From IMG/VR virus record IMGVR_UViG_3300020045_014840, positions 1 through 36,880 of that record: DNA of 36,880 nt. One strand, given 5' to 3'. This document shows, one piece after another, positions 1,881 through 33,782 of this stretch. Under the pieces are notes generated by a model that did not search any database, had not been told where the DNA came from, and saw only the letters and a list, made by a program, of their open reading frames with translations. Origin of the DNA: a virus (taxonomy: Duplodnaviria > Caudoviricetes). The translations under genes and the position numbers were made by a program. Within the stretch, counting starts at the first letter, position 1. Each line of letters opens with the position of its first letter.

Positions 1881-2247
1881 CAGCCCAAGTCGTTCTTCGT
1901 AAATACCCTTTTTCTTTCATGGCATTCAGCGTGGAAGAAAGATTTCTCGAAAATTTATCGTGAGGTTCTTGAAAGGATAAATAGTAGCAGCACCTATCTT
2001 TCAAATAAAAGTTACAACATAAGAATTCTTTTACTCGCTTCTTCGTTCGAATATCCCCCACCCAAGGCTTAGGCATGTAAACGGTCTCAGAATCCTGGAC
2101 CTCCAATCGCAATTGGAGATCATCCTCTTGAATCAGAAAGATCACATTATTTAGCACTTTGATAAAGTGAGTGCTATTTTTATCCATATCCGGATGGGGA
2201 CCGGAAGAACGGTCGGAAGATTTCCTAGAAGGGGCATCAAACTGCAT
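1846..2247 (-). CDS. Hypothetical protein in the replication operon
   Basis: 133-aa ORF overlapping rep and the J-domain gene; GAGG upstream. Confidence 0.65.
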   Translation of the reverse strand: MQFDAPSRKSSDRSSGPHPDMDKNSTHFIKVLNNVIFLIQEDDLQLRLEVQDSETVYMPKPWVGDIRTKKRVKEFLCCNFYLKDRCCYYLSFQEPHDKFSRNLSSTLNAMKEKGYLRRTTWADDGGEWGRGFV

Positions 2248-3148
2248 CAGAACCTCTCACCCTAACCCCAGTCCACTTAATCAATATCTCTAGAAAAGCT
2301 TCCTCAGGAAGATCCAATGACACCGAATCCCCTGATTCTTGGTTAGTTACGGATGCTTTATAGATCAAGAGGATATTCGCCTTTCCAAGGCAATTTTTAA
2401 TCTTGATAGCCGTTTCTAGGTTAGCTTGAATACGAGCCCCGTTATTCTTGGAAGGGTTCCTCTTAGCCCAAATTTTATCAAAATTTCTCCTCAAACCATC
2501 CGCAGACTGGAGAACGTTAACCCAGAAAGGGTCATCTTCAAAGGCATATCGGATTGCCTCCATTAGGTCTTTAAATGCCCTACAATCGATTTTCATAGCC
2601 TTATCCATGTCCGAAGCCCAATTTTCAATTTTAGGCCTTTTAAAGGCAGGATGAGAGGCTAGGATGCGTTTCTCTAACTCTTGGGCAAGTTCTAAACCTT
2701 CTTTTGAGAAGCCAGTCTCTCTTCTCCCACTTTTTGAAGGGGGAGGACATAGACTATTCTCTCCACTATTCTCTCCTCTATATGACGCATCGCCTTGAGG
2801 GGGGTGCAGGTTTCGACAGGGGGGGGTGTTGTTTTGTTCAGGGGGGGGTGTTGTTTTGTTCAGGGGTGAAATTTTTAAAGAAGATCTTAAAATCCTCTTA
2901 TTTCCATCCCTTAGTTCCATTTTCAAAAGTCCCTGTTTTCTAAGCCTCTCCAGTCCTACTTGAAGGGCTCTTTCTGAAACCTGCATGACCTTCACTAGAT
3001 AGGCATTAGAGGCAATACATCCGGTGTCTGGATGGTCTAGACTATCGATCTCGGCCCATAGCACCTTATCAAAGGCACTTAACTCTGGGTGCAGCCATAT
3101 TTCTCTGGGAATCCATATCCCTTTAAAGGCGCGTGGCAAATCTTCCAT
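2237..3148 (-). CDS. Phage replication initiator (lambda O-like, N-terminal winged HTH)
   Basis: FKGIWIPREIW..ELS..DKVLWAEIDSLD...GCIASNAYL N-terminus typical of phage initiators; central Pro-rich linker encoded by tandem repeats; AGGAG SD. Confidence 0.85.
   Translation of the reverse strand: MEDLPRAFKGIWIPREIWLHPELSAFDKVLWAEIDSLDHPDTGCIASNAYLVKVMQVSERALQVGLERLRKQGLLKMELRDGNKRILRSSLKISPLNKTTPPPEQNNTPPCRNLHPPQGDASYRGENSGENSLCPPPSKSGRRETGFSKEGLELAQELEKRILASHPAFKRPKIENWASDMDKAMKIDCRAFKDLMEAIRYAFEDDPFWVNVLQSADGLRRNFDKIWAKRNPSKNNGARIQANLETAIKIKNCLGKANILLIYKASVTNQESGDSVSLDLPEEAFLEILIKWTGVRVRGSDAV
2817..2866. repeat. 22-bp tandem iterons, putative replication origin
   Basis: CAGGGGGGGGTGTTGTTTTGTT x2 exact (2817-2860) plus partial CAGGGG, inside the rep gene next to an AT-rich tract. 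Confidence 0.8.
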
Positions 3149-3161
3149 AAACGTTTTTCTC

Positions 3162-3233
3162 CTAATGTTTTACGTAAACATTATTTAGGGTTGTGATAAA
3201 TCGGGAGGGTATTTTAAGATGACTGATGTCCAT
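3162..3233 (-). CDS. Putative rep leader peptide (23 aa, not in ORF track)
   Basis: MDISHLKIPSRFITTLNNVYVKH; AAGGA 10 nt upstream; its TAG overlaps the rep SD (TAGGAG). Confidence 0.5.
   Translation of the reverse strand: MDISHLKIPSRFITTLNNVYVKH
3191..3220 (+). promoter_or_regulatory. Putative sigma70/66-type promoter antisense to the rep leader
   Basis: TTGTGA-N18-TAAGAT, directly upstream of a + strand terminator. Confidence 0.45.
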
Positions 3234-3292
3234 AAACGACATTTCCTTGATGGGTCGCTTTCTTTGAAGCGGTAAGCGGCCCATTCTTTTTT
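3226..3292 (+). ncRNA. Putative antisense small RNA controlling rep
   Basis: Bounded by promoter-like motif and intrinsic terminator; 5' hairpin ATGTC-CATAAAC-GACAT; no + strand ORF here. Confidence 0.5.
3250..3292 (+). terminator. Rho-independent terminator, opposite to flanking genes
   Basis: Stem ATGGGTCGCTT / AAGCGGCCCAT (one G-U) followed by TCTTTTTT. Confidence 0.75.
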
Positions 3293-3335
3293 CAAGGATG
3301 GTGTATACGACAAATTTAAGATTTAAAGCATCAAC

Positions 3336-3722
3336 TTAAATTAAACTCTTGTCTAATCCATTGATGTTCAATACATAAGCCGATCCCCTTCTGGTGAAAG
3401 GGATCATCCTCTTCCTAATCAGATAGTAAATTCTCTGTGGAGGGACACCTAGTTCATTCGCTAGCTGTACCGGTGAATAGAGCCCCTTCTCAGCATCAAA
3501 GACTCTCTTACCCTTCTCATCTACTGTATTCAGACGGTTATAGAGCATCTCCTCATATTCATAGACATCGTGGATATCTACAAACCAGTGCTTCTCTCTC
3601 TTTTTAGCTTTGAGCCTTCCTCGGCGAATAGCCATGTAGATCGTCTGCGGGTGAACTTCGCGGTATTCGGCAACTTGTTTGACTTTCATCATAGTGATAA
3701 ATATTTTACATGGCAGGCGCAT
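3336..3722 (-). CDS. euo: EUO-like tandem HTH transcriptional regulator (chlamydial early upstream ORF homolog)
   Basis: QTIYMAIRRGRLKAKK, WFVDIHDVYEY, FDAEKGLYSPVQLANELGVPPQRIYY, RRGSAYVL match the Chlamydia EUO motifs as I recall them; start may be 3692 (MMKVKQ). Confidence 0.85.
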   Translation of the reverse strand: MRLPCKIFITMMKVKQVAEYREVHPQTIYMAIRRGRLKAKKREKHWFVDIHDVYEYEEMLYNRLNTVDEKGKRVFDAEKGLYSPVQLANELGVPPQRIYYLIRKRMIPFTRRGSAYVLNINGLDKSLI

Positions 3723-3903
3723 ATCTTAAAAGACAATCATGCTCCATCTCCACCCAGATCATGCCGCAGTCCTGGCACTCAAGGACATCTTTGTAGACCA
3801 CCTTAAATCTTCCTTCCTTTAATCTGGACTTACACTTAGGACAACAGTCATGTCTCTTAAAATCAGTGGACTTATGCTTCAGGCTACGAGAATGGATCTT
3901 CAT
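3706..3903 (-). CDS. Zinc-ribbon protein
   Basis: CPKC...CQDC; 3' end abuts/overlaps euo; start uncertain. Confidence 0.55.
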   Translation of the reverse strand: MKIHSRSLKHKSTDFKRHDCCPKCKSRLKEGRFKVVYKDVLECQDCGMIWVEMEHDCLLRYAPAM

Positions 3904-4341
3904 GCTAAATACCCCTTGTTTGGAAAGCGGAAGACGATAGGGTATAGGAAATCTTTTAGCAATGCTAAATGGGTAGAGATCGGAGGCCAGTGCATCTACG
4001 CCAGGTCTTTATGGGAGGCCAACTACGCCAGGTATTTGGAATGGCAAAAGGAAAGAGGTTACATAGTTGACTGGCTTCACGAGCCCAAGACCTTTTGGTT
4101 CGAAAATATCAAGAGGGGCGTAAGAAGCTACCTTCCCGACTTCAAGGTGATTGAGACGCCAGAGAAATGGCACTGGGTTGAAGTGAAAGGATATATGGAT
4201 GCCAAATCAAAGACCAAACTGACCCGGTTCAAAAAGTACTATCCTAAAGAGCGCCTCGTCCTTATTGATGAGACCTGGTTCAGGCGCAATAGTTCTAAGA
4301 TAAGACTGATTATCCCAGATTGGGAAAGGGGAAATGTATGA
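3850..4341 (+). CDS. PD-(D/E)xK endonuclease (DUF1064/TnsA-like; possible resolvase)
   Basis: RSLWEANYARYL...W.HEP..F...YLPDF...WVEVKGYM; true start probably downstream (e.g. 3892). Confidence 0.8.
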   Translation: MSLKISGLMLQATRMDLHAKYPLFGKRKTIGYRKSFSNAKWVEIGGQCIYARSLWEANYARYLEWQKERGYIVDWLHEPKTFWFENIKRGVRSYLPDFKVIETPEKWHWVEVKGYMDAKSKTKLTRFKKYYPKERLVLIDETWFRRNSSKIRLIIPDWERGNV

Positions 4342-4430
4342 AATGGGCGGTGTGCTTTATCCTGCTTTGCTGTGCTGTGTCGGTGGCACTGTATGTAAAT
4401 TGGAAGGTGAATGGGATGGATGAGGAATAG
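4338..4430 (+). CDS. Small single-TM peptide (30 aa, not in ORF track)
   Basis: MKWAVCFILLCCAVSVALYVNWKVNGMDEE; ATGA overlap with upstream stop; overlaps the tail of the opposite-strand HTH gene. Confidence 0.4.
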   Translation: MKWAVCFILLCCAVSVALYVNWKVNGMDEE

Positions 4431-4626
4431 GCGGCTCTTCCCTTCGGATGTCTTCTATAGACTTGACATTCCCCTTGGTAAACCTTTCTACATGGTAGAG
4501 CGCCATCTTCCCAGGCTTCCTGTACCCAGAGATCCAGTGATGGATATAAGCGCGATCGTACCCTATCTTCCTGGCCAGCTGACTGATCGAGATGCGGTTA
4601 TGGTATAGCCAAGTCATTAATTTCAT
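4357..4626 (-). CDS. Cro/XRE-like HTH regulator
   Basis: MKLMTWL...ISISQLARKIGYDRAYIHHWISGYRKPG...VERFTKGNV, typical Cro-like HTH; divergent from the recombination operon. Confidence 0.85.
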   Translation of the reverse strand: MKLMTWLYHNRISISQLARKIGYDRAYIHHWISGYRKPGKMALYHVERFTKGNVKSIEDIRREEPPIPHPSHSPSNLHTVPPTQHSKAG

Positions 4627-4697: not shown

Positions 4698-4871
4698 TTG
4701 AAACGTGACCCTTTGACTCTACACCAAAAGATTCTCATCGTACTGGCCCTAGCCATCATAACTTTGGTCTTTGTCTATCTCAGCTATGAACATTTTGAAT
4801 TCATGAAACAAGCCGAAATCTTAACTTTAAAAATCCAAAAGGAGTTAACCAATGGAATTTCTACCAAGTGA
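4698..4871 (+). CDS. Single-TM small protein (57 aa, TTG start, not in ORF track)
   Basis: AAGAGG SD; KILIVLALAIITLVFVYLSY hydrophobic helix. Confidence 0.6.
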   Translation: MKRDPLTLHQKILIVLALAIITLVFVYLSYEHFEFMKQAEILTLKIQKELTNGISTK

Positions 4872-5613
4872 CTATGAAAGTCCCAAGAGCAATAGTAATT
4901 ATTTTAAACTGCAAGACGGAGAGAACAAGATCCGCATCCTCAGCCGCCCTATCCTAGGATGGCTAGACTGGAAGGACAAAAAGCCTCTCAGATTCCGGAT
5001 GAATGCCAAACCTACCCATTCCATCGATCCTAATCAAGCCGTCAAACACTTTTGGACGATGATCATCTGGGACTATGCCCAGAAAAAGATTTGCATCTTT
5101 GAGATGACGCAGGCGAGTATCTGGAAAAGGATCGAGACCTTGTCAATTGATGCAGACTGGGGCGCCCCTTATAGGTATGACCTCAAGATTACGAAGAGCG
5201 GCTCGCAGAAAGACACCAAATACACGATCTTACCTGTCGCTCCTAAAGAGATCTGGCCAGAGATACGAGATGCCTTTAAAGAGCTTCCTATTGACCTTGA
5301 AGAGCTATTCAAGGGAGGAGACCCGTTCAACGGTGTACAGAGGACCTTGGGCTTCTGGGAGATCCCCTCCGCTATCTCTAAAGAAATGAACACCGAGATT
5401 AAGGGAGAGTGTGTTTCTAAGGAAGAAGCTCAAGAGATAGAGGACACTATCGAAAGGGCGATCAGTCCTTATGACAAGGATTGGAGAGCAGCAGCCTTGA
5501 GAGCTTTCAAGATCGACAGCTTTGAGAAGCTAGAAAAAAGGCTCCATGACTTGATGATTAAGCGGATCGATGAGAAGAGGGAAAAGATCCTCTCCGAAGA
5601 CGTGCCCTTTTAA
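4852..5613 (+). CDS. Putative ssDNA-binding/annealing protein
   Basis: YFKLQDGENKIRIL...YDLKITKSG..KDTKY phage SSB-like motifs; acidic-aromatic C-terminus EDVPF; next to the exonuclease; AAGGAG SD. Confidence 0.7.
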   Translation: MEFLPSDYESPKSNSNYFKLQDGENKIRILSRPILGWLDWKDKKPLRFRMNAKPTHSIDPNQAVKHFWTMIIWDYAQKKICIFEMTQASIWKRIETLSIDADWGAPYRYDLKITKSGSQKDTKYTILPVAPKEIWPEIRDAFKELPIDLEELFKGGDPFNGVQRTLGFWEIPSAISKEMNTEIKGECVSKEEAQEIEDTIERAISPYDKDWRAAALRAFKIDSFEKLEKRLHDLMIKRIDEKREKILSEDVPF

Positions 5614-5665
5614 TGGAAAACCCCATCCTTAAAAAAGATGGGGTGCGCAAAACTTCGATAGGACA

Positions 5666-6577
5666 ATGAAGAGAACATTTATGAGCGTAAAAGAAGAACC
5701 AAAAAAATACAAGCTTATCGAGCTTATTCAGAGAAGCCCAGAATGGCTTAACTTTAGAAAAGGGAAGATCGGAGCCTCCCAAGTAGGAGCTATCCTAGGC
5801 GTAGATCCTTTCAAGACAGCTCTCCAACTCTGGACGGATATCGTCTTTGATCGGAAAACTCCTGTAAATAGCGCCATGCAACGGGGGATCGATGGAGAAG
5901 ACGGAGCTCTAGAATGGCTGAACAAGGTAGAAGACTCCGTAGATTTCGATAGCTTTTATCCGGCAGTTTTACAGTCAGTGGAATATCCATTCCTCATTGC
6001 AAGTCTGGATGGGTTTAGAGAAAAAGACATTCAGGCTGTAGAGATCAAATTCCCAAGCAAAAAGGTCCACGAATATCTTTTGGAAACTGGCAGACCTCCC
6101 GAAAGATACATGCCGCAGCTCCAATTCCAAATGTATATCGGCGGCTTTGACAAGATGTTCTACCTGTCATGTTTTCAGGACGAGAAGGTTTTGAGGGTGG
6201 TTGAGAGAGACCAAAAATTCATCGACGAGATGATCCCTGAAATTTTGGCCTTCAGAACCTCTATAATCGATTGTAAGCCTCCAGAACCTGTTGACAAGGA
6301 TGTAATCCAGATAGACGATCCTGAGGCTGTTCTGAAAGCCGAAAGATTCATCGAGCTGGATCGGTTGATCTGGGAGCTGTCACAGGAAAGGGATGCGCTG
6401 AGGCTGGAGATGACGGAGATGGCGAAGTATCAAAAGGTACAGATCGGAGCCTTGATGCTTTCAAAGGTGATTCGGCCAGGGAATGTGAATTGGGAGGCGG
6501 TAGAAGCCTTGAAGGGGATCGATCTGACGGCGTACAGGAAGAGTCCAATAGAATCTTGGAGACTTTCTTATGAGTGA
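5666..6577 (+). CDS. YqaJ / lambda-exonuclease family protein
   Basis: QRSPEWLNFRKGKIGAS...AMQRG...ASLDG...VEIK...QLQFQM. Confidence 0.93.
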   Translation: MKRTFMSVKEEPKKYKLIELIQRSPEWLNFRKGKIGASQVGAILGVDPFKTALQLWTDIVFDRKTPVNSAMQRGIDGEDGALEWLNKVEDSVDFDSFYPAVLQSVEYPFLIASLDGFREKDIQAVEIKFPSKKVHEYLLETGRPPERYMPQLQFQMYIGGFDKMFYLSCFQDEKVLRVVERDQKFIDEMIPEILAFRTSIIDCKPPEPVDKDVIQIDDPEAVLKAERFIELDRLIWELSQERDALRLEMTEMAKYQKVQIGALMLSKVIRPGNVNWEAVEALKGIDLTAYRKSPIESWRLSYE

Positions 6578-6920: not shown

Positions 6921-8672
6921 TTAACAGACTAAAGTGCCACAGAAATAAGTTTCTGCAGTAGCTGCGCCTAGAATATTTTCTGTATCTCCAGCTTCTCCTG
7001 AAGCTACGATTGTTACGACTGCTGTATCTCCAGCTGTCATTAATGCCAAAATACTAATAAAAGCACTATGAGCGGTACTTGTAACAGGTCTTCCTACTGA
7101 ATTAACATATGTACGGGCACTCGTTCCAGTGATTACAATACTAATAACTACGGATGTAGGAGTTGAAAAATCATTCGCTGTAATCTGAGATCTTAGATCA
7201 TATATACCTGTAACAGGAGCCGTGAAAGTACCATTCACATTAAAATCGCCATTTCGGTCATAGACTTCCGTTAGAGCATCAGTTCCTAAAGTATAAGTTG
7301 CTCCAGCTCCTGTTTTGTCAGTAGCTGTAGAAGCCAGATAAGCAAAAAATGCAGGCTGCAGGGGCATCGTGATCTCACCTGCAACAGTACTTATGAGAAC
7401 ATCATTTGTGCCTAAGGTAGAATTTTGAGAAATCTTCCACTTGTCTGCATCAGAATTATCTATTCCAGATGCCCAGTTAGTAGAGGCTGAAATATTATAA
7501 TAAACATAGGCATCTCCTCCAGACGCCCCTCCTGCTTGAATCGCTACAAGAGAGGATGATGCCGTATTGGTATTATCGCTATTCGTTGTCTGATTTATGA
7601 CAGACCCTCCCACTGAACTTCTGGATACAAGTAAATTTCCTAATGGAACCGTAACAACGCCTGCTGTGGAAATTGTCAAAGTATCAGTTGTACCTAATGC
7701 TGTAGAGGCCGCAATTACATAAGCATCTGAGGCACTATTATCTATACCTTGAGACCAACTTGTTGATCCCGTGATAGTAAAGGTTTGGAAAGGATCTCCT
7801 CCTGAAGTGCCACCACTAATAATTTGGCAAAGAGCATGTGAGGCTACGTTTGTGTTATCTGTATTAGTGGCTCCCGTCTTTACCGTTCCCGCTGCTTGTG
7901 ATCGCGTAGCTAATATATCTCCGCTAGTAGCCGTTATGTCGCCTGCTACAATCAGACTATTCGCCCCGATTGTGGTAACGCCGGCAGTCGAAATATCTAG
8001 ATAATCATTAACGCCGAGGTAAGATCCGAAAGACACTTTGAATTTACTATCAGTAGCATCGCGTCCAACACTCCAGCTACTCCCCCCTCCTATTCCAGGC
8101 CCAGTTCCAAATATTATGAGAGCATCGCCTACATAACATTCAGCAAAAAAAGCCGCCCTTGAAAGTGTATCAGTGAGATCAGAATTTAATACTGTTAAAA
8201 CGCGAGTTATAGCCGGAGCATTACATGTAAATGTAAAATCTCCATTCATACTACTTGAAAAAAGAGGATCAGAATTATTCGCTCCGATGAGCATCGTTCC
8301 AGTAACTCCGACGGGAAGACTTGTGATAGTAGAAGTTCCCGCTCCTACTAAAACTGCATGATTAGTAAGTCCTGTCAGAGAGGTAGTAAGAGTCGATCCA
8401 CTACCTGCTATTGTGATACTTCCAGATCCAAGTAAATTCCAATTATTAGAAGAGGGAGAAATCGCCCCTCCACTATTGCCGGTAAGAGTTAATGCATCAG
8501 CTGCATCAACATCAATAGTAATGGTCTTACCAGAGGCGGATGTAGAGACGCCAGGACCCCCTAGAATCTCAAGATTATTGACTAGAGGAACCGCCGTCCC
8601 AGAATCCGTAGTAAAGCTAGTCGGGATCTGGGGATTTGTGATATTGACATCGACGAGTCCCCCTTGAGACAT
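6921..8672 (-). CDS. Tail fibre/spike with C-terminal C1q-like domain
   Basis: MSQGG N-terminus shared with 9338..12244; three internal repeats (WxxGxD motif); PAFFAY...FTAPVTGIY...YFCGTLV C1q-like head. Confidence 0.8.
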   Translation of the reverse strand: MSQGGLVDVNITNPQIPTSFTTDSGTAVPLVNNLEILGGPGVSTSASGKTITIDVDAADALTLTGNSGGAISPSSNNWNLLGSGSITIAGSGSTLTTSLTGLTNHAVLVGAGTSTITSLPVGVTGTMLIGANNSDPLFSSSMNGDFTFTCNAPAITRVLTVLNSDLTDTLSRAAFFAECYVGDALIIFGTGPGIGGGSSWSVGRDATDSKFKVSFGSYLGVNDYLDISTAGVTTIGANSLIVAGDITATSGDILATRSQAAGTVKTGATNTDNTNVASHALCQIISGGTSGGDPFQTFTITGSTSWSQGIDNSASDAYVIAASTALGTTDTLTISTAGVVTVPLGNLLVSRSSVGGSVINQTTNSDNTNTASSSLVAIQAGGASGGDAYVYYNISASTNWASGIDNSDADKWKISQNSTLGTNDVLISTVAGEITMPLQPAFFAYLASTATDKTGAGATYTLGTDALTEVYDRNGDFNVNGTFTAPVTGIYDLRSQITANDFSTPTSVVISIVITGTSARTYVNSVGRPVTSTAHSAFISILALMTAGDTAVVTIVASGEAGDTENILGAATAETYFCGTLVC

Positions 8673-9337: not shown

Positions 9338-12244
9338 TCATGTAAGACATAAGACTGCCCATCTATCAGAATTCACTTTGATGAGATGTACTCCCCCTCG
9401 ATTGAATGTATAGTTGGTCGTATTTTGACACCAAATAAATCCATCGTTGGCATCATAGTTGTCTACAAGAGTACAGGTACTGGAAGAAGAGTTCGACCAT
9501 ACATAGATTATCTGTCCTTCTGTCCCTCCTGTAAAATGACGAACGGTGATCGCTCCTCCTCCCGTATTGGAAAGTTTTACACGAGATTTACCTGCTACAC
9601 TGACATCGCCTGTAGTCCCACTGGCCACCGTTACTTCATCAGTAAGGGTTTGTATTCCATCTACTTGTAATAAAGTCGAACTGATTGTATCGCCAGTGAC
9701 GGTTAAATCATCATCGACCGTGGCATCGGTCGTCACTTGGAGTGTTGTAAATTTTCCCGTAGAGGCAGAAGAAGCGCCGATTGCTGTTCCATCAATAGCA
9801 CCCCCGTTGATATCAGCGGTTGTTATGGTTCCAGTAGTGAATGTTCCAGCGGCTGCACTGCTTCCTCCAATAGTAGTACCGTCTATCGTTCCCGAGTTGC
9901 AATCTATTTTAGAAATAACAACGTTTCCAGTCCCATTAGGAGTTATATTTATAGCTCCATCGGTATTCATGGAAATGATGGTGTTGCCATTGATATTGAT
10001 ATTATCTACGGTAAAATCCGTACAATCTAATGTAGTAAATGTGCCAGTAGATGCCGAAGCAAGTCCTACCGTTGTTCCATCAACGGCACCTCCGTTGATG
10101 TCTACCTTAGACATGACAACGGATCCAGTTCCTTTGGGTGTGATAGTGATATTTATGGCTGCATCAGTTCCATCGGCTGATAGAGTAGTTCCTACAAGAG
10201 TAACGCCAGCGGCCACTACATTTGTGTCGAAAGTAGTTCCTAAGATTGTGGTAGAGGTAAGGGAAGTAAGACCCGTTATCGTTGTATCAAGGTTTAGAGT
10301 AACTGTAGAGCCTGATCCAGTCGAACCGATATTTGTTCCTCCAGCAATCGTAAGAGCTCCGGCAGCGGGCGTAGCTGTTCCTGAATCAGTAGGAAAGGAA
10401 TTAGATACAGCTCCATCGGTTTCTATATTGATCGTTCCGGTACCAAATGTAAGATCAATTGTCCCGCCAGTAGATGTAATGGCTCCAGCTACAGGAGGCG
10501 CTCCTGTAAATCCGATGACGAGCTGTCCGTTGGTGAGAGGACCCACTCCCTCAAGAAAACCAGTCGCTCCATAATAAGGCACAGTATTTTGAGTGGCATA
10601 GGAAATGCCGACTCTTCCTGTACCATCTGGAGTCAATAAAATATTACCATTTACGTTGAATGAAGCGATGGTATTGCTATTGATACTGATATTATCGACG
10701 TCTAAAGCCTGAAGAGTCGCCGTTCCACTTAATAAAGCTGCATTCGTAATGAATATGGCTCCAGAACCTGCTGGAGTTAAGTTGATACTTCTATCTGCGT
10801 CTGTTCCCGTAGTCGAAATGGTCGTAGAATTAATGGAAATATTGCTTGTTGTAGGGGCTGTAATAAATGTAGTGGCTGTAGCTGTTGTAAATTTTCCAGT
10901 AGTCGCGGAAGAGGCACCTATGGTAGTCCCATCAATCGTTCCAGAATTGATATCTACTTTAGACATCACAACAGATCCAGTTCCTTTAGGAGTGATGGTG
11001 ATATCTATAGCTGCATCTGTTCCATCCGCCGAAAGAGTTGTACCTACTAGAGTGACACCGGCAGCTACAACATTCGTATCAAAAGTAGTACCTAAAATAG
11101 TGGTAGAAGTAAGAGAAGTGAGACCTGTAACCGTAGTATCAAGATTGATAGTTACAGTAGAAGCGGCACCAGATGAATTTAGATTTGTCCCTCCTGCAAT
11201 CGTAAGTGCACCGGAAGAAGGGGTAGCGGTTCCAGAATCTGTTGGGAAAGAAAGAGCTACTGCTGATCCTGTAGTAAGACCTAAGGTGCCGGCTCCTGTT
11301 GTAAAGGCGATGGAACTGTCAGAAGAAGTAAGAGTAGCAAAAATGGGATCTGCCGCTGTAGAACCTAAGAGAACTTGACCGTTAGTTCCGACTGCTAGCT
11401 TTGTGATGGTACTTGTATTGGCTCCCACAAGAACGGCATGATTGGTGAGCCCCGTCAATTGCGTTGTAAGGGTGTTTAAAGAGCCTACCGTGGTTATACT
11501 GCCCGATCCATCCATATTGACAAGACCGGCTACGGTGGGTACTACAGGATCGGTTCCCGAGTCAGGAGAAAAGGTGTCTATGCCAACACTTCCTCCAGCA
11601 AGATCAATATTGAGAGTTCCCGCTCCAGCCGTGATAGTGATCGTTCCTCCAGAAGAAGTTAGAGTAGAAGCAACAGGAGAGGCGCCTGTAGAACCAATCA
11701 CAAATTGACCACTAGACAGAGTAAGAGAAGAAAGAGCTCCCGTGGTTGTAGTGTTAGAAATTACGACACCATTTACACTGAATGCAGTGGCGGCTGTTCC
11801 CCCTCCTACAATTTGGGCTGTTCCAAAAATAGGATCTAATGAAACACCTTGGGAAATAAGAGGGATGCCGGATACTCCAGGCAAGACTTTAGTGATAGTA
11901 GAAGTACCGGCACCTATGAGAACTGCGTGATTGGTGAGGCCTGTGAGCTCTAAAGTGAGTGTAGCGGTGGGCACATCACCAGAAGTAGTAAAGCTGCCTC
12001 CCCCGAGGATATTCCAATTATCTAGAATAGGCAGTACAGGATCGCCTGAATTGCCTGTAATGGAAAGAATGGCAAGTGTTGATTCGACAGTGACGATATT
12101 TGAAGCGCCAGTAGTAGTAACCCCGGTTCCCCCTCTGATCTGAATTACATTGGCACTCGGAACAGCTGTGCCGGAATCTGTTTCAAAAGAGGTAGGGATT
12201 TGAGGATTCGAAATATTGACATCAGTGATCCCACCTTGGCTCAA
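9338..12244 (-). CDS. Large tail fibre protein (968 aa, TTG start)
   Basis: Gly/Thr-rich; repeated TDSGTAxP, GLTNHAVLxG, ITPxGTG and IDGTTIG modules typical of phage fibres. Confidence 0.82.
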   Translation of the reverse strand: MSQGGITDVNISNPQIPTSFETDSGTAVPSANVIQIRGGTGVTTTGASNIVTVESTLAILSITGNSGDPVLPILDNWNILGGGSFTTSGDVPTATLTLELTGLTNHAVLIGAGTSTITKVLPGVSGIPLISQGVSLDPIFGTAQIVGGGTAATAFSVNGVVISNTTTTGALSSLTLSSGQFVIGSTGASPVASTLTSSGGTITITAGAGTLNIDLAGGSVGIDTFSPDSGTDPVVPTVAGLVNMDGSGSITTVGSLNTLTTQLTGLTNHAVLVGANTSTITKLAVGTNGQVLLGSTAADPIFATLTSSDSSIAFTTGAGTLGLTTGSAVALSFPTDSGTATPSSGALTIAGGTNLNSSGAASTVTINLDTTVTGLTSLTSTTILGTTFDTNVVAAGVTLVGTTLSADGTDAAIDITITPKGTGSVVMSKVDINSGTIDGTTIGASSATTGKFTTATATTFITAPTTSNISINSTTISTTGTDADRSINLTPAGSGAIFITNAALLSGTATLQALDVDNISINSNTIASFNVNGNILLTPDGTGRVGISYATQNTVPYYGATGFLEGVGPLTNGQLVIGFTGAPPVAGAITSTGGTIDLTFGTGTINIETDGAVSNSFPTDSGTATPAAGALTIAGGTNIGSTGSGSTVTLNLDTTITGLTSLTSTTILGTTFDTNVVAAGVTLVGTTLSADGTDAAINITITPKGTGSVVMSKVDINGGAVDGTTVGLASASTGTFTTLDCTDFTVDNININGNTIISMNTDGAINITPNGTGNVVISKIDCNSGTIDGTTIGGSSAAAGTFTTGTITTADINGGAIDGTAIGASSASTGKFTTLQVTTDATVDDDLTVTGDTISSTLLQVDGIQTLTDEVTVASGTTGDVSVAGKSRVKLSNTGGGAITVRHFTGGTEGQIIYVWSNSSSSTCTLVDNYDANDGFIWCQNTTNYTFNRGGVHLIKVNSDRWAVLCLT

Positions 12245-16023: not shown

Positions 16024-16206
16024 ATGAAAGAAGACGACTCAGACAACACGCAGATCAATATCCGCATCCCCAAGAAAGCTTTTGTAGAGCTAAAGATCAT
16101 GTGCATCTTGACCAATAGAACGCTGAGCAGCTTCTTAAGGACGGCTATTAGAGAAAAGATCATCCAAATCAAGGAACAGCAAAAGAATGACCGGAATCCT
16201 ATCTAA
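16024..16206 (+). CDS. Ribbon-helix-helix (Arc/CopG-like) regulator
   Basis: TQINIRIPK..FVELK..C....RTLSSFLRTAIREKI RHH pattern. Confidence 0.75.
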   Translation: MKEDDSDNTQINIRIPKKAFVELKIMCILTNRTLSSFLRTAIREKIIQIKEQQKNDRNPI

Positions 16207-17683
16207 AGAATGGAGAATGAACAACCTCTATCGGATCGTGAACAGGAATGGCGATTCCATAAAATTTGTCCTGAATCCTGTGCAATCAGAAGTTCTTAAA
16301 GGATTGCACACCAGGAACCTAATCCTTAAAGCAAGACAATTAGGCATGAGCACGTTCGCCGTTATTTACTATCTGGATGAAGCACTATTCAAGGAGAATA
16401 ATTCTGTAGGTATTGTCAGTTATTCCCTAGAACATGCGCAGCATATCTTCAAGAGGATCATCGGACATGCTCTCGACACCTTACCTGAAAAGCTAAAGCC
16501 TTTGGCTGGGATCGTCAATAGGTCAGCGAGAGAGATTACCTTCAACAATGGCTCTTTCATAAGGGTAGATACGACTTTACGGGGCGGTACATGTCAGCAT
16601 GTATTGGTCAGTGAGTTTGGCAAGACCTGTGCCAGGAATCCGTTGAAGGCAGAAGAAGTGATTACTGGAACACTACAATCCGTACCCATCAGCGGGTCGG
16701 TTATTATCGAATCCACGGGTGAGGGAAATGAAGGATACTTTACCGAACTTTGTAATCAAGCAATCTCTCAAGGAAATGAAAATCTATCTCCTCTCCAATA
16801 TAAGTTGCATTTTTTCCCTTGGTTTAAAGAAGTCAGTTACAGAATGTTGCAAGACGTAACCTATGGGACAGAACTCACCGACTACTTAAACAAGATCGAA
16901 AAGGAGACCGGAGAGACGATTGACCGTCATCAAAGAAACTGGTACGCCCATCAATCTAGTGTCTTGGGCGATAAGGTGCGTCAAGAGTATCCCTCTACCC
17001 CAAAAGAAAGCTTCCTAGCCACTTCCGACGCCTATTACTTCCAGCAATGCATAGAAGCCGCCTACAAGTCCAATAGATGCCTTAACTCATCCATGTATGA
17101 CGCAATCTTCCCTGTCTATGTGGCGATGGATATAGGTGTAAACGATCTAACCGTAATGGTTTTCTTTCAGGTGATCCACGGAGAGATCAGAGTGATTGAC
17201 TACTATGAGGACAAGAATAAAGGTGTAGATTTCTACGCAAAGTTCCTCCTTCAAGATAAAAAGTTCCTCTACGACACCATCTTCCTGCCACACGATGCAG
17301 CGCATAGAGATGGGATTGTCGTAGAAAACACTTACCAGAGAGATTTTCAAAGACTCTTTGGCCAGACCAATACAAAGTTCATCGTCTTGAGGAGAACCGA
17401 TAAGAACGTGATGATCTCAAATGCCAAGATAAAATTTGAAAGGTGTGTCTTCAACATTGCAAGGGTCAAGCCTTTCCTGGACATGATCGCCAAGTACCGG
17501 AAGAAGTGGAGCGAAGCTGTAGGGAAGTGGTTGGACGAACCTCTCCATGACATCAGTAGCAATTACGCGGATGCTTTTCAATATATGGGGCTAGCGGTAA
17601 ATCACTTGGAATCTGTAGGCGGCAATAAATCAGCCCTTGAAAAACACAAAGAGATCGTCGCTAATCGAAAAGGGAAAATATGA
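16187..17683 (+). CDS. terL: Terminase large subunit
   Basis: ILKARQLGMST Walker A, VLVSEFG Walker B, IIESTGEG coupling motif, nuclease domain MDIG...LPHDA...ADAF. Confidence 0.95.
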   Translation: MTGILSKEWRMNNLYRIVNRNGDSIKFVLNPVQSEVLKGLHTRNLILKARQLGMSTFAVIYYLDEALFKENNSVGIVSYSLEHAQHIFKRIIGHALDTLPEKLKPLAGIVNRSAREITFNNGSFIRVDTTLRGGTCQHVLVSEFGKTCARNPLKAEEVITGTLQSVPISGSVIIESTGEGNEGYFTELCNQAISQGNENLSPLQYKLHFFPWFKEVSYRMLQDVTYGTELTDYLNKIEKETGETIDRHQRNWYAHQSSVLGDKVRQEYPSTPKESFLATSDAYYFQQCIEAAYKSNRCLNSSMYDAIFPVYVAMDIGVNDLTVMVFFQVIHGEIRVIDYYEDKNKGVDFYAKFLLQDKKFLYDTIFLPHDAAHRDGIVVENTYQRDFQRLFGQTNTKFIVLRRTDKNVMISNAKIKFERCVFNIARVKPFLDMIAKYRKKWSEAVGKWLDEPLHDISSNYADAFQYMGLAVNHLESVGGNKSALEKHKEIVANRKGKI

Positions 17684-18825
17684 TTATAGAAGGTGATTGT
17701 CTTGAAGTGATGAAGACATTTCCAGACAATCATTTTTCAGCGATTTGCACAGATCCCCCTTACGGTCTTTCATTCATGGGAAAAGAGTGGGATGCAGGTG
17801 TGCCTCATGCGGAGATATGGACTGAAGCATTGCGTGTATCCAAGCCTGGCGCATTCTTATTGGCTTTCGGCGGTACGCGCACATACCATCGCCTAACTTG
17901 CGCGATTGAAGATGCGGGGTGGGAGATACGCGATTGTTTATCCTGGCTGTACGCATCAGGATTTCCGAAAAGTCATAACAATTTCGGCATACCTGGATAC
18001 GGAACCGCCCTTAAGCCAGCATGGGAACCCATCATATTCGCTATGCGTCCTCTCGACGGAACCTTCGCCAAGAATGCAGAGAAGTGGGGACAGGCGGGGA
18101 TTAATATTGATGGGTGTCGGATTCCCATTGATTCTGAAAAGGATGACCCTAGATTAGGGGGAAAAGGGTCTTGGGATACATCTAGTGCAGGTCAGAATGT
18201 CTACGAGGGTGGATATGCCGGAAACAGGATGACTTCTTCACCAAAAGGCCGCTGGCCCGCCAACGTCATGTTCGACGAGGAGGCAGCTGAGATGCTGGAT
18301 GAGAAAAGTGGCATTTCTAATCCAAAGCAGCAGCGTGAAGGTGTCAAAGGTGGATCGGGATTTGGTTATTTCGATGATGTCAAAACGTCTTCAATGAATG
18401 GGGTATGGCCTGGTGATAATGGTGGCGGCGCATCCCGCTTCTTCTACTGCGCCAAGACGAGCAGCAGGGAGAGGAATGAAGGGCTTGAGGCGTTTCCCCT
18501 GAAAGAAAAGAAAACTCTTAATGATTATACGAGTCCGTCAGAGGGGCGCTCTGCATCAAAGAGCGGGGCTCCTATGGCTAATAATCATCCCACAGTTAAG
18601 CCGCTCAAGCTAATGACATACCTCATCAAGCTAATAATGCCTCAAAAAGATGGCATACTGCTGGACCCATTCGCAGGAAGCGGCTCAACTCTTGTTGCGG
18701 CAACTCGTTTGGGGATTGATTGCATAGGAATAGAGAAACAACCCGAATATTGCGAGATCGCAAGAAAACGGGTTGAACATGAACTAGAAAAGCCAAAACA
18801 AATTGATTTGTTCAATGAAAATTGA
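17680..18825 (+). CDS. N4/N6 DNA methyltransferase (beta class)
   Basis: TDPPY catalytic motif N-terminal, HPTVKP and LDPFAGSGST SAM motif C-terminal. Confidence 0.95.
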   Translation: MIIEGDCLEVMKTFPDNHFSAICTDPPYGLSFMGKEWDAGVPHAEIWTEALRVSKPGAFLLAFGGTRTYHRLTCAIEDAGWEIRDCLSWLYASGFPKSHNNFGIPGYGTALKPAWEPIIFAMRPLDGTFAKNAEKWGQAGINIDGCRIPIDSEKDDPRLGGKGSWDTSSAGQNVYEGGYAGNRMTSSPKGRWPANVMFDEEAAEMLDEKSGISNPKQQREGVKGGSGFGYFDDVKTSSMNGVWPGDNGGGASRFFYCAKTSSRERNEGLEAFPLKEKKTLNDYTSPSEGRSASKSGAPMANNHPTVKPLKLMTYLIKLIMPQKDGILLDPFAGSGSTLVAATRLGIDCIGIEKQPEYCEIARKRVEHELEKPKQIDLFNEN

Positions 18826-19003
18826 AAAAGACTACCCTTCCTGGATCTGCAAAGAATGCGTTACATCTCAAGGTTGCACCAATATGAAGAGCCTTTCTAC
18901 CTATCACGAAGGTATCTGTGGCTGGTGCAAAGAGAAAAAGGTTGTCACAGAACCACGGGATTACTACTATCCCCTCTATCCTAGAAAAAGTTACTTAGAA
19001 TAA
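18815..19003 (+). CDS. Small zinc-finger protein
   Basis: WICKEC...STYHEGICGWC...VTEPRDY. Confidence 0.7.
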   Translation: MKIEKDYPSWICKECVTSQGCTNMKSLSTYHEGICGWCKEKKVVTEPRDYYYPLYPRKSYLE

Positions 19004-19058: not shown

Positions 19059-21185
19059 ATGCTTAACGCCAATGAGATCTGGAGCGAGTTCCAGGAAAAC
19101 TACCGCTATGCTCACGATTACTGGTCTCCTTTTGTTGCTAATGCCCAAGTTTATACTCTTGCGGCTTCTGGTTATACATGGAGCGATCAGGAAAGGATTC
19201 AGCTCACTAAAGAGGGAAGAGAGCCTCTAGAGCTGAATATCATGAGAAGGCCATTGCAGTTCTTCTCTGGATACCTTCGCGACAACCTTAACTCTATCGT
19301 CATCGCACCAGTCGAGGGTAGCGATCAAAAGACGGCCGATCAATTTACAAAGCTCTCCTATTACACCTGGGATAAGGGCGAAGGGTACTCCACATTCCTA
19401 GATGCCTGTGATGAATCCATGAAGGCAGGGATCTCTTTATGCGGTCTAATGATGGATTACTCTAAAGACTTCATCAATGGCGATATCACCTTCTTCAAGA
19501 GGTGCTTTAACCAATTCTATTTAGATCCTACATTCGAAAGAACAGACCTAACCGACTGTGCCTTTTCCATTACAAGGGATCTCCTTGATAGAAACTTAAT
19601 AAAACAGCTCCTTCCATTCGTAGATCCTACGCTGATCGACAACATCCAGAACGCTTTTCGAGATGACAAGTTCTTATCGTACCATCCCAACTTCACAACG
19701 CTCAGCCGCAATCGCAACTTGATGGCGTATGATCAGTATTACAAGAGGACCACCAGAAAGAGAAAGTTCCTCGTCGATGAAAGTTCTTCCTATTACAGAG
19801 ACATCACCGATTTGGACAAGGAAGAGGTCTCAAAGCTAAAACTCGGCATCTACCGCTTGAGAAAGATGAGGGAAGAGGCAGAAGAAGGGGCGATGGGAGA
19901 AGAAGGACTTCCACCTGTCTTGGAGATTAGAGAGGAAAATAGACCCTACGTAGAGCTTCACATCATGCTCAACGGCCAGGAAGTCTATAACGGAGAGGAC
20001 AAGACAGGGATCGTTGAAACATACCCATTCGCCCCAATCATTTCCTATTTTGAACCTTCTATCTGGATGCCATCACAAAGAATCCAAGGTATCGCCTCCT
20101 GTCTCTGGTCCGCACAAAGACAATTCAATAAGCGCCACATGAAGATCGTCGACATGATGGATTCTACTATCTCTACCGGTTTCAAATATTTGATCGGGTC
20201 TTTAGCTGATCCACAAGACCTCCAGCAATCAGGACAGAACAAAATCATCGGCGTAGATCCTGAAGGGGCAGGTCCAGCGGGTCTAGGGGCTGTCGAACAG
20301 TTGCAAGGAGGGGGAGCCAATCCCGCTCTTGTAGAGTACCAGAAAGTTCTAGATCAATTGACCCTCACCCTTGCCAACATCAATGAATCTGTCTTGGGAG
20401 TCGATGAGAAAGGAAATACCCAAGTCTCAGGAAGACTGGCTCAGGTGAGGATTGCTCAAGGCTTGAGATCCAATCGAAAGATCTTCGACAACATAGAACT
20501 AAGCCAAAAGATCTTGGGCGGCTTGGTATTGAAAACCATCCAGAACCACTATCCCCCAGGCAAAGTAGAGCGGATCATCGGGGAAAAACCGACGCCACAA
20601 TTCTATGAAAAAGAATTCGAACAATATGACGCGGTAGTTAAAGAAGGCGTCAGGTCCCAATCTCAGCGGGATGCTTACTACTATGAATTGGTACAACTCA
20701 AAAAAGATGGAGTCGTCAATGTTCCAGAATCTGAAATTGTTAGAGCGCTTCAAATGGCTGGCCTTGACGATCTACAAAAAGCTATTCAGCAGCAGCAGCA
20801 ACAGCTAGCACAGCAACAACAGATGGCTGCTAAAGTGGAAATGGAAGCGTTAGATGCTAAGAAACAAGCGGACCTTGGTTTGGCAGAAGAGAGGAAGTCT
20901 AGAGTCATCAGCAATCTTTCTCTAAAAGACGAAAGGGAATCAGAAGCAGTACAAAATATAGCTCAAGCAACACTAGATAGAGCCAGAACCATCACAGAGA
21001 TCGCCAAGATGCACGATGACAGGATCTTACAGGTATTGCAATTCGTCAATCAGTTGGAACAACAAGAAGCAGCTCAACGAGAGATGCAAAAAGAGCAAGT
21101 CGCTGAACAGGCAAATAGTGTCGATGCAGCGACCTTAAGCGGTGGTCAAGAGCCACAACAACAAGAGGAAAATTATGGCATATGA
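19059..21185 (+). CDS. Portal protein (P22-like)
   Basis: 708 aa after terL; GYTWS...GREPLELN N-terminal motif, SGR motif, Gln-rich helical C-terminal barrel. Confidence 0.88.
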   Translation: MLNANEIWSEFQENYRYAHDYWSPFVANAQVYTLAASGYTWSDQERIQLTKEGREPLELNIMRRPLQFFSGYLRDNLNSIVIAPVEGSDQKTADQFTKLSYYTWDKGEGYSTFLDACDESMKAGISLCGLMMDYSKDFINGDITFFKRCFNQFYLDPTFERTDLTDCAFSITRDLLDRNLIKQLLPFVDPTLIDNIQNAFRDDKFLSYHPNFTTLSRNRNLMAYDQYYKRTTRKRKFLVDESSSYYRDITDLDKEEVSKLKLGIYRLRKMREEAEEGAMGEEGLPPVLEIREENRPYVELHIMLNGQEVYNGEDKTGIVETYPFAPIISYFEPSIWMPSQRIQGIASCLWSAQRQFNKRHMKIVDMMDSTISTGFKYLIGSLADPQDLQQSGQNKIIGVDPEGAGPAGLGAVEQLQGGGANPALVEYQKVLDQLTLTLANINESVLGVDEKGNTQVSGRLAQVRIAQGLRSNRKIFDNIELSQKILGGLVLKTIQNHYPPGKVERIIGEKPTPQFYEKEFEQYDAVVKEGVRSQSQRDAYYYELVQLKKDGVVNVPESEIVRALQMAGLDDLQKAIQQQQQQLAQQQQMAAKVEMEALDAKKQADLGLAEERKSRVISNLSLKDERESEAVQNIAQATLDRARTITEIAKMHDDRILQVLQFVNQLEQQEAAQREMQKEQVAEQANSVDAATLSGGQEPQQQEENYGI

Positions 21186-33441: not shown

Positions 33442-33582
33442 TTACAAGATCCTCTCTATAAAATATGTCATTCCTATTCCTACACACAATATCACACAAA
33501 ACACTATTCCATACCCTTCCAAGAAACTAAGAATTCCTGCCGACACAAATAGGACTATCGACGCAATAGTAAAAGGATTCAC
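33442..33582 (-). CDS. Two-TM membrane protein, probable paralog of 33196..33423 (GTG start)
   Basis: MNPFTIASIVLFVSAGILSFLEGYGIVFCVILCVGIGM; GTGA overlap with the upstream stop. Confidence 0.65.
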   Translation of the reverse strand: MNPFTIASIVLFVSAGILSFLEGYGIVFCVILCVGIGMTYFIERIL

Positions 33583-33782
33583 TCTTTCCCCCTTCGTCCT
33601 CTTTTCATCTCGCGCTCCATCATTTGGATGTATTTCTCTTCCAAGCGGCACAGGCGCCCGTGGAAGTCTGTAATGGCAGCGTGGAAGCCTTTCATTTCTT
33701 TCTGGGACTCCCTGTGAAGATACCAGACGGAGCCCACTGTAGAGGCTGCTATCGTTAGTGCGTGAAACCATTCCATTGTCAT
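33579..33782 (-). CDS. Single-TM plus coiled-coil protein
   Basis: (MT)MEWFHALTIAASTVGSVWYL...DFHGRLCRLEEKY; start placed by the promoter at 33789-33829. Confidence 0.75.
   Translation of the reverse strand: MTMEWFHALTIAASTVGSVWYLHRESQKEMKGFHAAITDFHGRLCRLEEKYIQMMEREMKRGRRGKE

Follow-up and report, generated by a model that had tools for sequence, protein, structure and literature searches.

The 36,880-bp stretch of DNA analysed here (the window), a whole IMG/VR virus record with direct terminal repeats of 121 bp, is a complete podovirus-like tailed-phage genome (~37 kb), and on its minus strand it encodes a protein that, as judged from its sequence, is a true but diverged member of the EUO family rather than a generic HTH_17 protein. 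EUO has been reported in 99% of chlamydial genomes (PMC8242063), and has been described as vertically inherited (PMC4652624) and as a putative chlamydial invention (PMC9816063). Developmental master regulators borne by phages are known, and a literature search that took in few subscription papers returned no report of a phage-encoded EUO or of this phage family. Our preferred reading, to which we assign a probability of roughly 40%, is that the phage protein would act early as an Euo mimic that delays RB-to-EB conversion.

The gene occupies positions 3336–3692 (−) when read from the ATG at 3692, giving a protein of 118 aa; the longest open reading frame, 3336–3722 (−), starts at the first ATG, encodes 128 aa and overlaps the upstream gene. 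All five motifs that the initial annotation had quoted for this reading frame are present in the order it gave, and the two-HTH architecture it described is borne out by two Pfam HTH_17 matches, which together with the predicted model define a first Xis-type winged HTH at 3555–3692 and a second, with a shortened last helix, at 3369–3482. Alignment with EUO places the EUO-specific linker (Y-x-R ... G ... FD ... KG-x-YS) between them, at 3483–3554. The earlier description of the protein as the DNA-binding core only is roughly right, in that, relative to the 149-aa EUO of Simkania, the protein lacks ~19 residues at its N-terminus and the final part of its last helix. AlphaFold, run on a 143-row alignment, predicted two winged helices (pLDDT 92.5, pTM 0.66). 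Compared with its nearest relative, in genome G001, the protein is 78% identical, with dN of 0.134 and dS of 0.662; the resulting dN/dS of ~0.20, against 0.03–0.05 for capsid, terminase and portal in the same pair, indicates that this is a working gene under purifying selection, with looser constraint than the virion genes.

Since the fold is that of Xis and excisionases are among the matches, the protein could also be a recombination directionality factor, or a DNA-bending protein for replication or segregation, with no transcriptional role. The best whole-chain structural match, to the tandem-Xis protein TraN (4pm3), fits such a role but is weak (E 0.025, TM 0.35); the other fold matches, to single Xis-type domains, are weak as well, and searches for a fold match at E 0.001 and for a sequence match in the PDB returned none. 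TraN of pIP501, Xis of mycobacteriophage Pukovnik (4j2n) and BldC (6ama) share the Xis/MerR-type winged helix, and TraN is likewise a tandem repeat, one that binds double-stranded DNA, but they show no significant sequence match, their fold matches are weak or confined to one domain, and they lack the EUO linker. In one sister subclade an XerD-like recombinase lies within ~3 kb of the EUO homolog; however, no integrase was found among the 51 window ORFs scanned or in the neighbourhoods compared for G001 and G022, and the nearest characterised relative is a transcription factor. We therefore consider a purely recombinational or structural role highly unlikely.

Homology to chlamydial EUO, as originally proposed, is supported by 31–40% identity (69–86 bits), linker included, to 82 chromosomal-type EUOs from metagenome loci. 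The protein is also 33–38% identical to 120 canonical-type EUOs and, over 109 aa with one gap, 37% identical to the EUO of Simkania sp. (P0168, 149 aa; E 3e-24), and equivalents of the EUO motifs listed previously are present in the Simkania and Neptunochlamydia proteins. The top three clusters in the ESM Atlas were mostly Chlamydiota, one of them named putative EUO. phmmer over 1.84 billion representatives gave 453 matches, 125 at ≤1e-10, and a profile made from eight canonical-looking sequences retrieved 3,489 proteins; among the 120 of these that were listed, seven carried an organism name, namely Simkania sp., Ca. Neptunochlamydia vexilliferae or Chlamydiia bacterium. The initial annotation had raised non-chlamydial tandem HTH_17 proteins as possible better matches, and no named protein of that kind scored equal to or better than EUO. 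Most of the best matches, however, were unnamed divergent proteins, several of them phage copies, and 130 of the 148 phmmer matches listed were <50% identical to any chromosomal EUO.

The FDxEKGxYS-type linker had been singled out as foreign to generic HTH proteins, and profile scores agree with this: the EUO-family profile gave generic HTH_17 genes from 401 genomes of one control phylum scores no higher than 40 bits, and these across a single domain, compared with 152 bits for the window protein on a profile that itself includes it. At a threshold of 1e-14, none of the 301 genomes of a second control phylum passed. A generic HTH_17 identity was rejected because the control-genome scores were low and single-domain and the window protein matches EUO over its full length, linker included. 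With the single protein as query, a word-index search found only P0003 and a scan of the viral set found no match, and neither the 50,697 annotated phages nor the 72,556 plasmids searched yielded a match to the homolog. When the halves were placed in one tree, first and second domains mostly grouped by position across phage and chromosomal copies, which points to a domain duplication common to both.

By alignment, the window protein is nonetheless not an ortholog-like near-copy of EUO. A chromosomal ortholog would be expected at ~56% identity or more, against the 31–40% observed, and this gene lies in a viral record with terminal repeats and in a different neighbourhood. Half of the near-invariant EUO positions are kept (33 of 66, counting positions ≥90% fixed in 26 chromosomal EUOs). 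The first recognition helix begins H-P-Q-T rather than the T-R-Q-A of chromosomal EUO (H14, P15 and T17 replace T, R and A), the wing Arg of the first domain is replaced by H35, and both termini are shorter than in EUO; the second recognition helix is better preserved than the first. Residues Y19, R53, Q86, Y89, Y90 and R93 are retained, and conservation in the 30 other phage copies stands at 83% for Q16, 73% for Y19, 87% for R53, 90% for Y89 and 90% for R93. Binding by Waddlia Euo was impaired in a triple mutant of Y31, R47 and Y100, and as described in that report only the triple mutant was impaired (PMC4989314). Mapped by spacing on P0013 rather than on the Waddlia sequence, Y31 and Y100 would correspond to Y19 and Y89, both kept, and R47 to H35, which is changed.

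Phage copies are 33% alike at the median, compared with 72% for chromosomal EUOs, and the lower figure is as expected if regulators drift with their own operators. A metagenome scan for chromosomal-type euo gave 389 relatives, of which 80 were kept. A divergent gene of 620–680 aa lies upstream of euo in all 12 long contigs examined, and in 10 of them it is adjoined by a 500-aa protein, which from its N-terminus is probably GltX, a neighbour also of chlamydial euo. Two chromosomal-type euo genes stand in tandem, the second a distinct paralog, in L161, L163, L164, L175, L178, L179, L184, L201, L211, L212 and L221. Relative to Euo of Chlamydia trachomatis and Waddlia chondrophila, then, the phage copy has the same tandem TorI/Xis-like winged helices, linker, spacing and 31–40% identity, and apparently, by the spacing-based mapping, the Tyr residues of the Waddlia binding mutant; it differs in being accessory, ~30 aa shorter, changed at half of the near-invariant positions and fast-evolving, and it shares neither the 72% median conservation nor the fixed chromosomal neighbourhood of chromosomal euo.

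The gene is phage-borne, as had been claimed, but it is more diverged than was supposed and is not a singular capture, being one member of a wide phage radiation. EUO homologs were found in 33 phage records (31 distinct proteins, window included) from two related podovirus clades, whose members have whole tailed genomes of 35–41 kb with an N4-gp56-type capsid and a P22-like portal. The window's capsid protein retrieved 161 viral contigs, the best 80 at 82–99% identity, and a canonical EUO profile added 11 viral contigs, eight with a capsid homolog at 32–35%; the sister clade comprises 118 contigs. EUO homologs are present in 3 of 35 records tested from the window's clade (2 of 17 among those ≥90% complete), a low count confirmed by an unfiltered search of the records, and in 24 of 45 from the sister clade (of near-complete records, 21 of 34, falling to 16 of 29 once five EUO-selected records are removed). 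As 15 of the 17 close relatives with near-complete genomes lack it, the gene is dispensable in the window's clade. Most of the diversity of the family is, by identity, non-canonical, and from the few members that match phage copies we infer that this portion is mostly phage-borne.

Two further features of the sister clade were observed. Capsid genes in L264–L268, L277, L306 and L314 are seemingly interrupted by inserts of ~220–370 bp or longer, which are possibly introns. One subclade (L127, L129–L133, L136) carries genes for an XerD-like recombinase, ParA with a small partner, a GroES-like protein and an RNA-ligase-like protein near the EUO homolog; these phages may be temperate or plasmid-like.

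Genes carried by the relatives make it very likely that the family infects environmental Chlamydiae, and this phage would probably share such a host. In the EUO-bearing genome G040, the best matches of ParA are proteins of two Ca. Rhabdochlamydia plasmids at 70% identity, followed by the next at 45%. A gene of G038 has its only match among 72,556 plasmids on the Protochlamydia plasmid pPNK and clusters with a gene of the close relative G011, although this member of the window's clade (L107:17928–18548) showed no match itself to pPNK, and another family common to both clades has a ~40% match on pPNK. For a tail-like protein of the close relative G003, Rhabdochlamydia and Criblamydia plasmids supply the top three of seven matches, and the EUO copy of G039 is 57% identical to chromosomal EUO. 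RING-finger and U-box genes occur in the EUO-bearing G039 and G044 (L140:9496–9957, L147:14846–15889), and these eukaryote-like domains hint at cargo suited to an intracellular host. One source mentions unclassified viruses with Chlamydiales as predicted hosts (PMC12644861).

Not all of the evidence points this way. The window's own genes gave no strong chlamydial match in database searches, and against three plasmids they gave weak matches of 40–80 aa at E 1e-4 to 1e-6; another ParA type, the XerD-like gene and an IS200 transposase of the relatives have non-chlamydial best plasmid matches. Among 185,579 species genomes the capsid gene found just two matches, one in a MAG titled Bacteroidales and one in a MAG titled Parcubacteria. 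These data would fit a non-chlamydial host, with EUO as a long-standing family of phage regulators and the chlamydial genes as a single branch of it that was domesticated. We regard this as unlikely, as the two capsid matches are on short contigs (33 kb and 13 kb), the EUO gene is in neither MAG, sampling of 401 and 301 genomes from the two phyla concerned turned up no EUO-type gene, and several genes of the relatives point to Chlamydiota. Both Ca. Rhabdochlamydia plasmids, and in one case the Criblamydia plasmid, also encode hypothetical proteins (L349:36790–37626; L350:13395–14237 and 18085–18921) that resemble phage tail-fibre-like proteins and are possibly domesticated tail genes.

The position of the gene suggests when it would be expressed. 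On the minus strand the order is a Cro-like HTH gene (4357–4626), which heads the same-strand early unit, then, past an inverted Holliday-junction resolvase-like nuclease (3850–4341, +; phrog_190), a small zinc-ribbon gene (3706–3903; a weak match, below cut-off) immediately upstream of the EUO homolog, a 187-bp spacer (3149–3335) and a replication initiator of lambda O/DnaD-like type (2237–3148; phrog_2514, phrog_391). G001 and G022 have the same gene order, zinc ribbon included, with a different initiator. The gene had been placed in the replication operon; it does precede the initiator gene by 187 bp, with both on one strand, and co-transcription is a prediction from this position. Of 32 phage loci, 11 have a Cro-like gene directly adjoining the EUO homolog in the same orientation, and three more, the window among them, have one no further than 1 kb away in that orientation. 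In lambda, cII occupies the slot just after cro, and a Cro-adjacent, cII-like slot would imply early expression.

A close rival to the mimic reading, weighted only a little lower, is the possibility that the protein, encoded in a slot like that of lambda cII, serves the phage itself as an early regulator, acting on phage promoters (in the spacer or of late genes, for example) with a DNA specificity that has moved away from that of host EUO. The Cro linkage, the changes in the first recognition helix and the extent to which phage copies differ from one another are all consistent with such a role, as is the spacer, a candidate control region that is strongly conserved in G001 despite the swapped initiator protein and that contains a near-palindrome (3163–3183) just ahead of the initiator's ribosome-binding site. 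Host Euo, moreover, is reported to autoregulate via an AT-rich site (PMC10653925). However, most close relatives share the virion genes but lack this one, which would not be expected of an essential timing switch, matches to the Waddlia Euo consensus are not enriched in the phage genome (3 versus 2.8 expected), and in a repeat search no repeated operator stood out near the gene. A promoter and terminator scan of the locus gave nothing above chance.

The mimic reading, which can coexist with a role at the phage's own promoters, would run as follows. Expressed from the early region, the EUO homolog would bind AT-rich promoter DNA through its two tandem winged helices, and its product would add to the host's Euo pool; the added Euo would delay the change of the replicating cell into a condensed elementary body while the phage multiplies, as a cell condensing its nucleoid would end phage production. 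In this chain the chlamydial host is taken from the genes of relatives, early expression from position and DNA binding from the kept residues. Much of the surface with which EUO contacts DNA is preserved in the family. Euo has been described as reading short, degenerate TTT boxes (PMC4989314), and a diverged copy could thus still use host sites. Counting against the mimic reading are the change of half of the near-invariant positions, including the first recognition helix and the wing Arg, the absence of the gene from most close relatives and the low similarity among phage copies. For the effect on host development we draw, by analogy, on the report that ectopic Euo above a threshold arrests the C. 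trachomatis cycle prior to EB formation (PMC11423577), and on the truncated Spo0A described in phages of spore formers (PMC10294663). The opposite effect is also conceivable: the protein might occupy Euo sites, or join Euo multimers, without repressing, so that late genes are freed and phage-carrying cells become EBs that bring the phage to a new eukaryotic host. The shorter termini, the changed first helix with a better-kept second one and the reported dimerisation of Euo on DNA (PMC4989314) would accord with this, but the window has no integrase that would make long-term carriage evident and the protein no sign of lost repression, and we judge such antagonism improbable.

The initial annotation had also raised descent of chlamydial euo from phages. 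On the present trees the phages may have captured the gene from hosts repeatedly, or euo may have been domesticated from phages, with neither AU tests nor rooting discriminating between the two. In a FastTree phylogeny of 179 rows and a quick IQ-TREE phylogeny of 57 rows, chromosomal EUO formed a group with short branches, amid phage copies that had long branches and fell into several grades; G039 and one subclade came nearest to it, and a very long branch led to the window pair; the window copy fell outside a 96-supported group in the IQ-TREE phylogeny, and outside it in FastTree as well. AU tests, applied to 34 rows after 11 long-branch phage rows were dropped and chromosomal rows thinned, did not reject sisterhood to the chromosomal group (p 0.23) or a single clade-A origin (p 0.42). 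When the tree was rooted by the internal duplication, the halves conflicted and there was one starred branch. The G039 copy looks like a recent exchange. The broadest scenario we can frame is that these podoviruses are undescribed, abundant tailed phages of environmental Chlamydiae, that euo was domesticated from their Cro-linked early regulator and that the copies now hold the host in its replicative state; taken whole, we find it doubtful.

In either direction, the radiation of EUO among phages would alter the view of EUO as a vertical chlamydial invention. If capture was repeated, the RB-to-EB switch would be a target of phages in the way that sporulation is for those of spore formers, and domestication would explain where the chlamydial switch came from. 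The nearest parallel is provided by phage-borne Spo0A effector domains and sporulation sigma factors (PMC10294663), likewise trimmed homologs of a host developmental regulator and proposed there to be anti-dormancy; the fold is unrelated, the EUO-bearing host would be obligate intracellular, and no regulatory domain has been lost here, as EUO has none known. Chlamydiamicroviruses and phage-gene remnants on chlamydial plasmids (PMC7846284) are similarly viruses or virus genes tied to Chlamydiae, although the remnants described in that source are lambdoid-type genes, whereas here there are whole tailed genomes of 35–41 kb. The two clades, with at least 161 and 118 IMG/VR contigs, are candidates for tailed phages that infect Chlamydiae, a phylum for which hardly any have been described. 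To our knowledge, and in line with PMC9753089, known chlamydial phages are small ssDNA viruses. The phage copies are also natural EUO variants, useful for learning how EUO reads DNA.

The remainder of the window encodes a divergent recombination module with an SSB-like protein and a YqaJ exonuclease (4852–6577, +), two tail-fibre-like genes (6921–8672 and 9338–12244, −), a terminase large subunit (16187–17683, +), a P22-like portal (19059–21185, +) and the N4-gp56-family major capsid protein that served as marker for the phage clade (22474–23412, +). The tail-fibre-like genes contain a short repeat that also occurs in hypothetical proteins encoded on Rhabdochlamydia plasmids, a match that for the window itself is weak and was absent in one further search. 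Pfam endolysin, amidase and lysozyme families were absent from 271 ORFs (the window's 51 plus 220 family representatives), a scan that covered the window and 29 related records with short ORFs and some families omitted; this fits a host with little peptidoglycan, but is a weak point. A small membrane-anchored coiled-coil family (33579–33776, −) occurs in many phages of both clades and has 5,707 homologs, one of them named holin in UniRef. Downstream of the initiator lies a DnaJ-domain gene (1362–1880, −) that was not found in the relatives compared. A 76-aa Ser/Thr-rich protein with two Cys-Cys pairs (517–747, +), possibly secreted or lipidated, was found elsewhere only in G001 among the loci compared, and two neighbouring paralogs with near-identical N-termini (725–1036 and 1014–1262, +) are represented by a single copy in G001.
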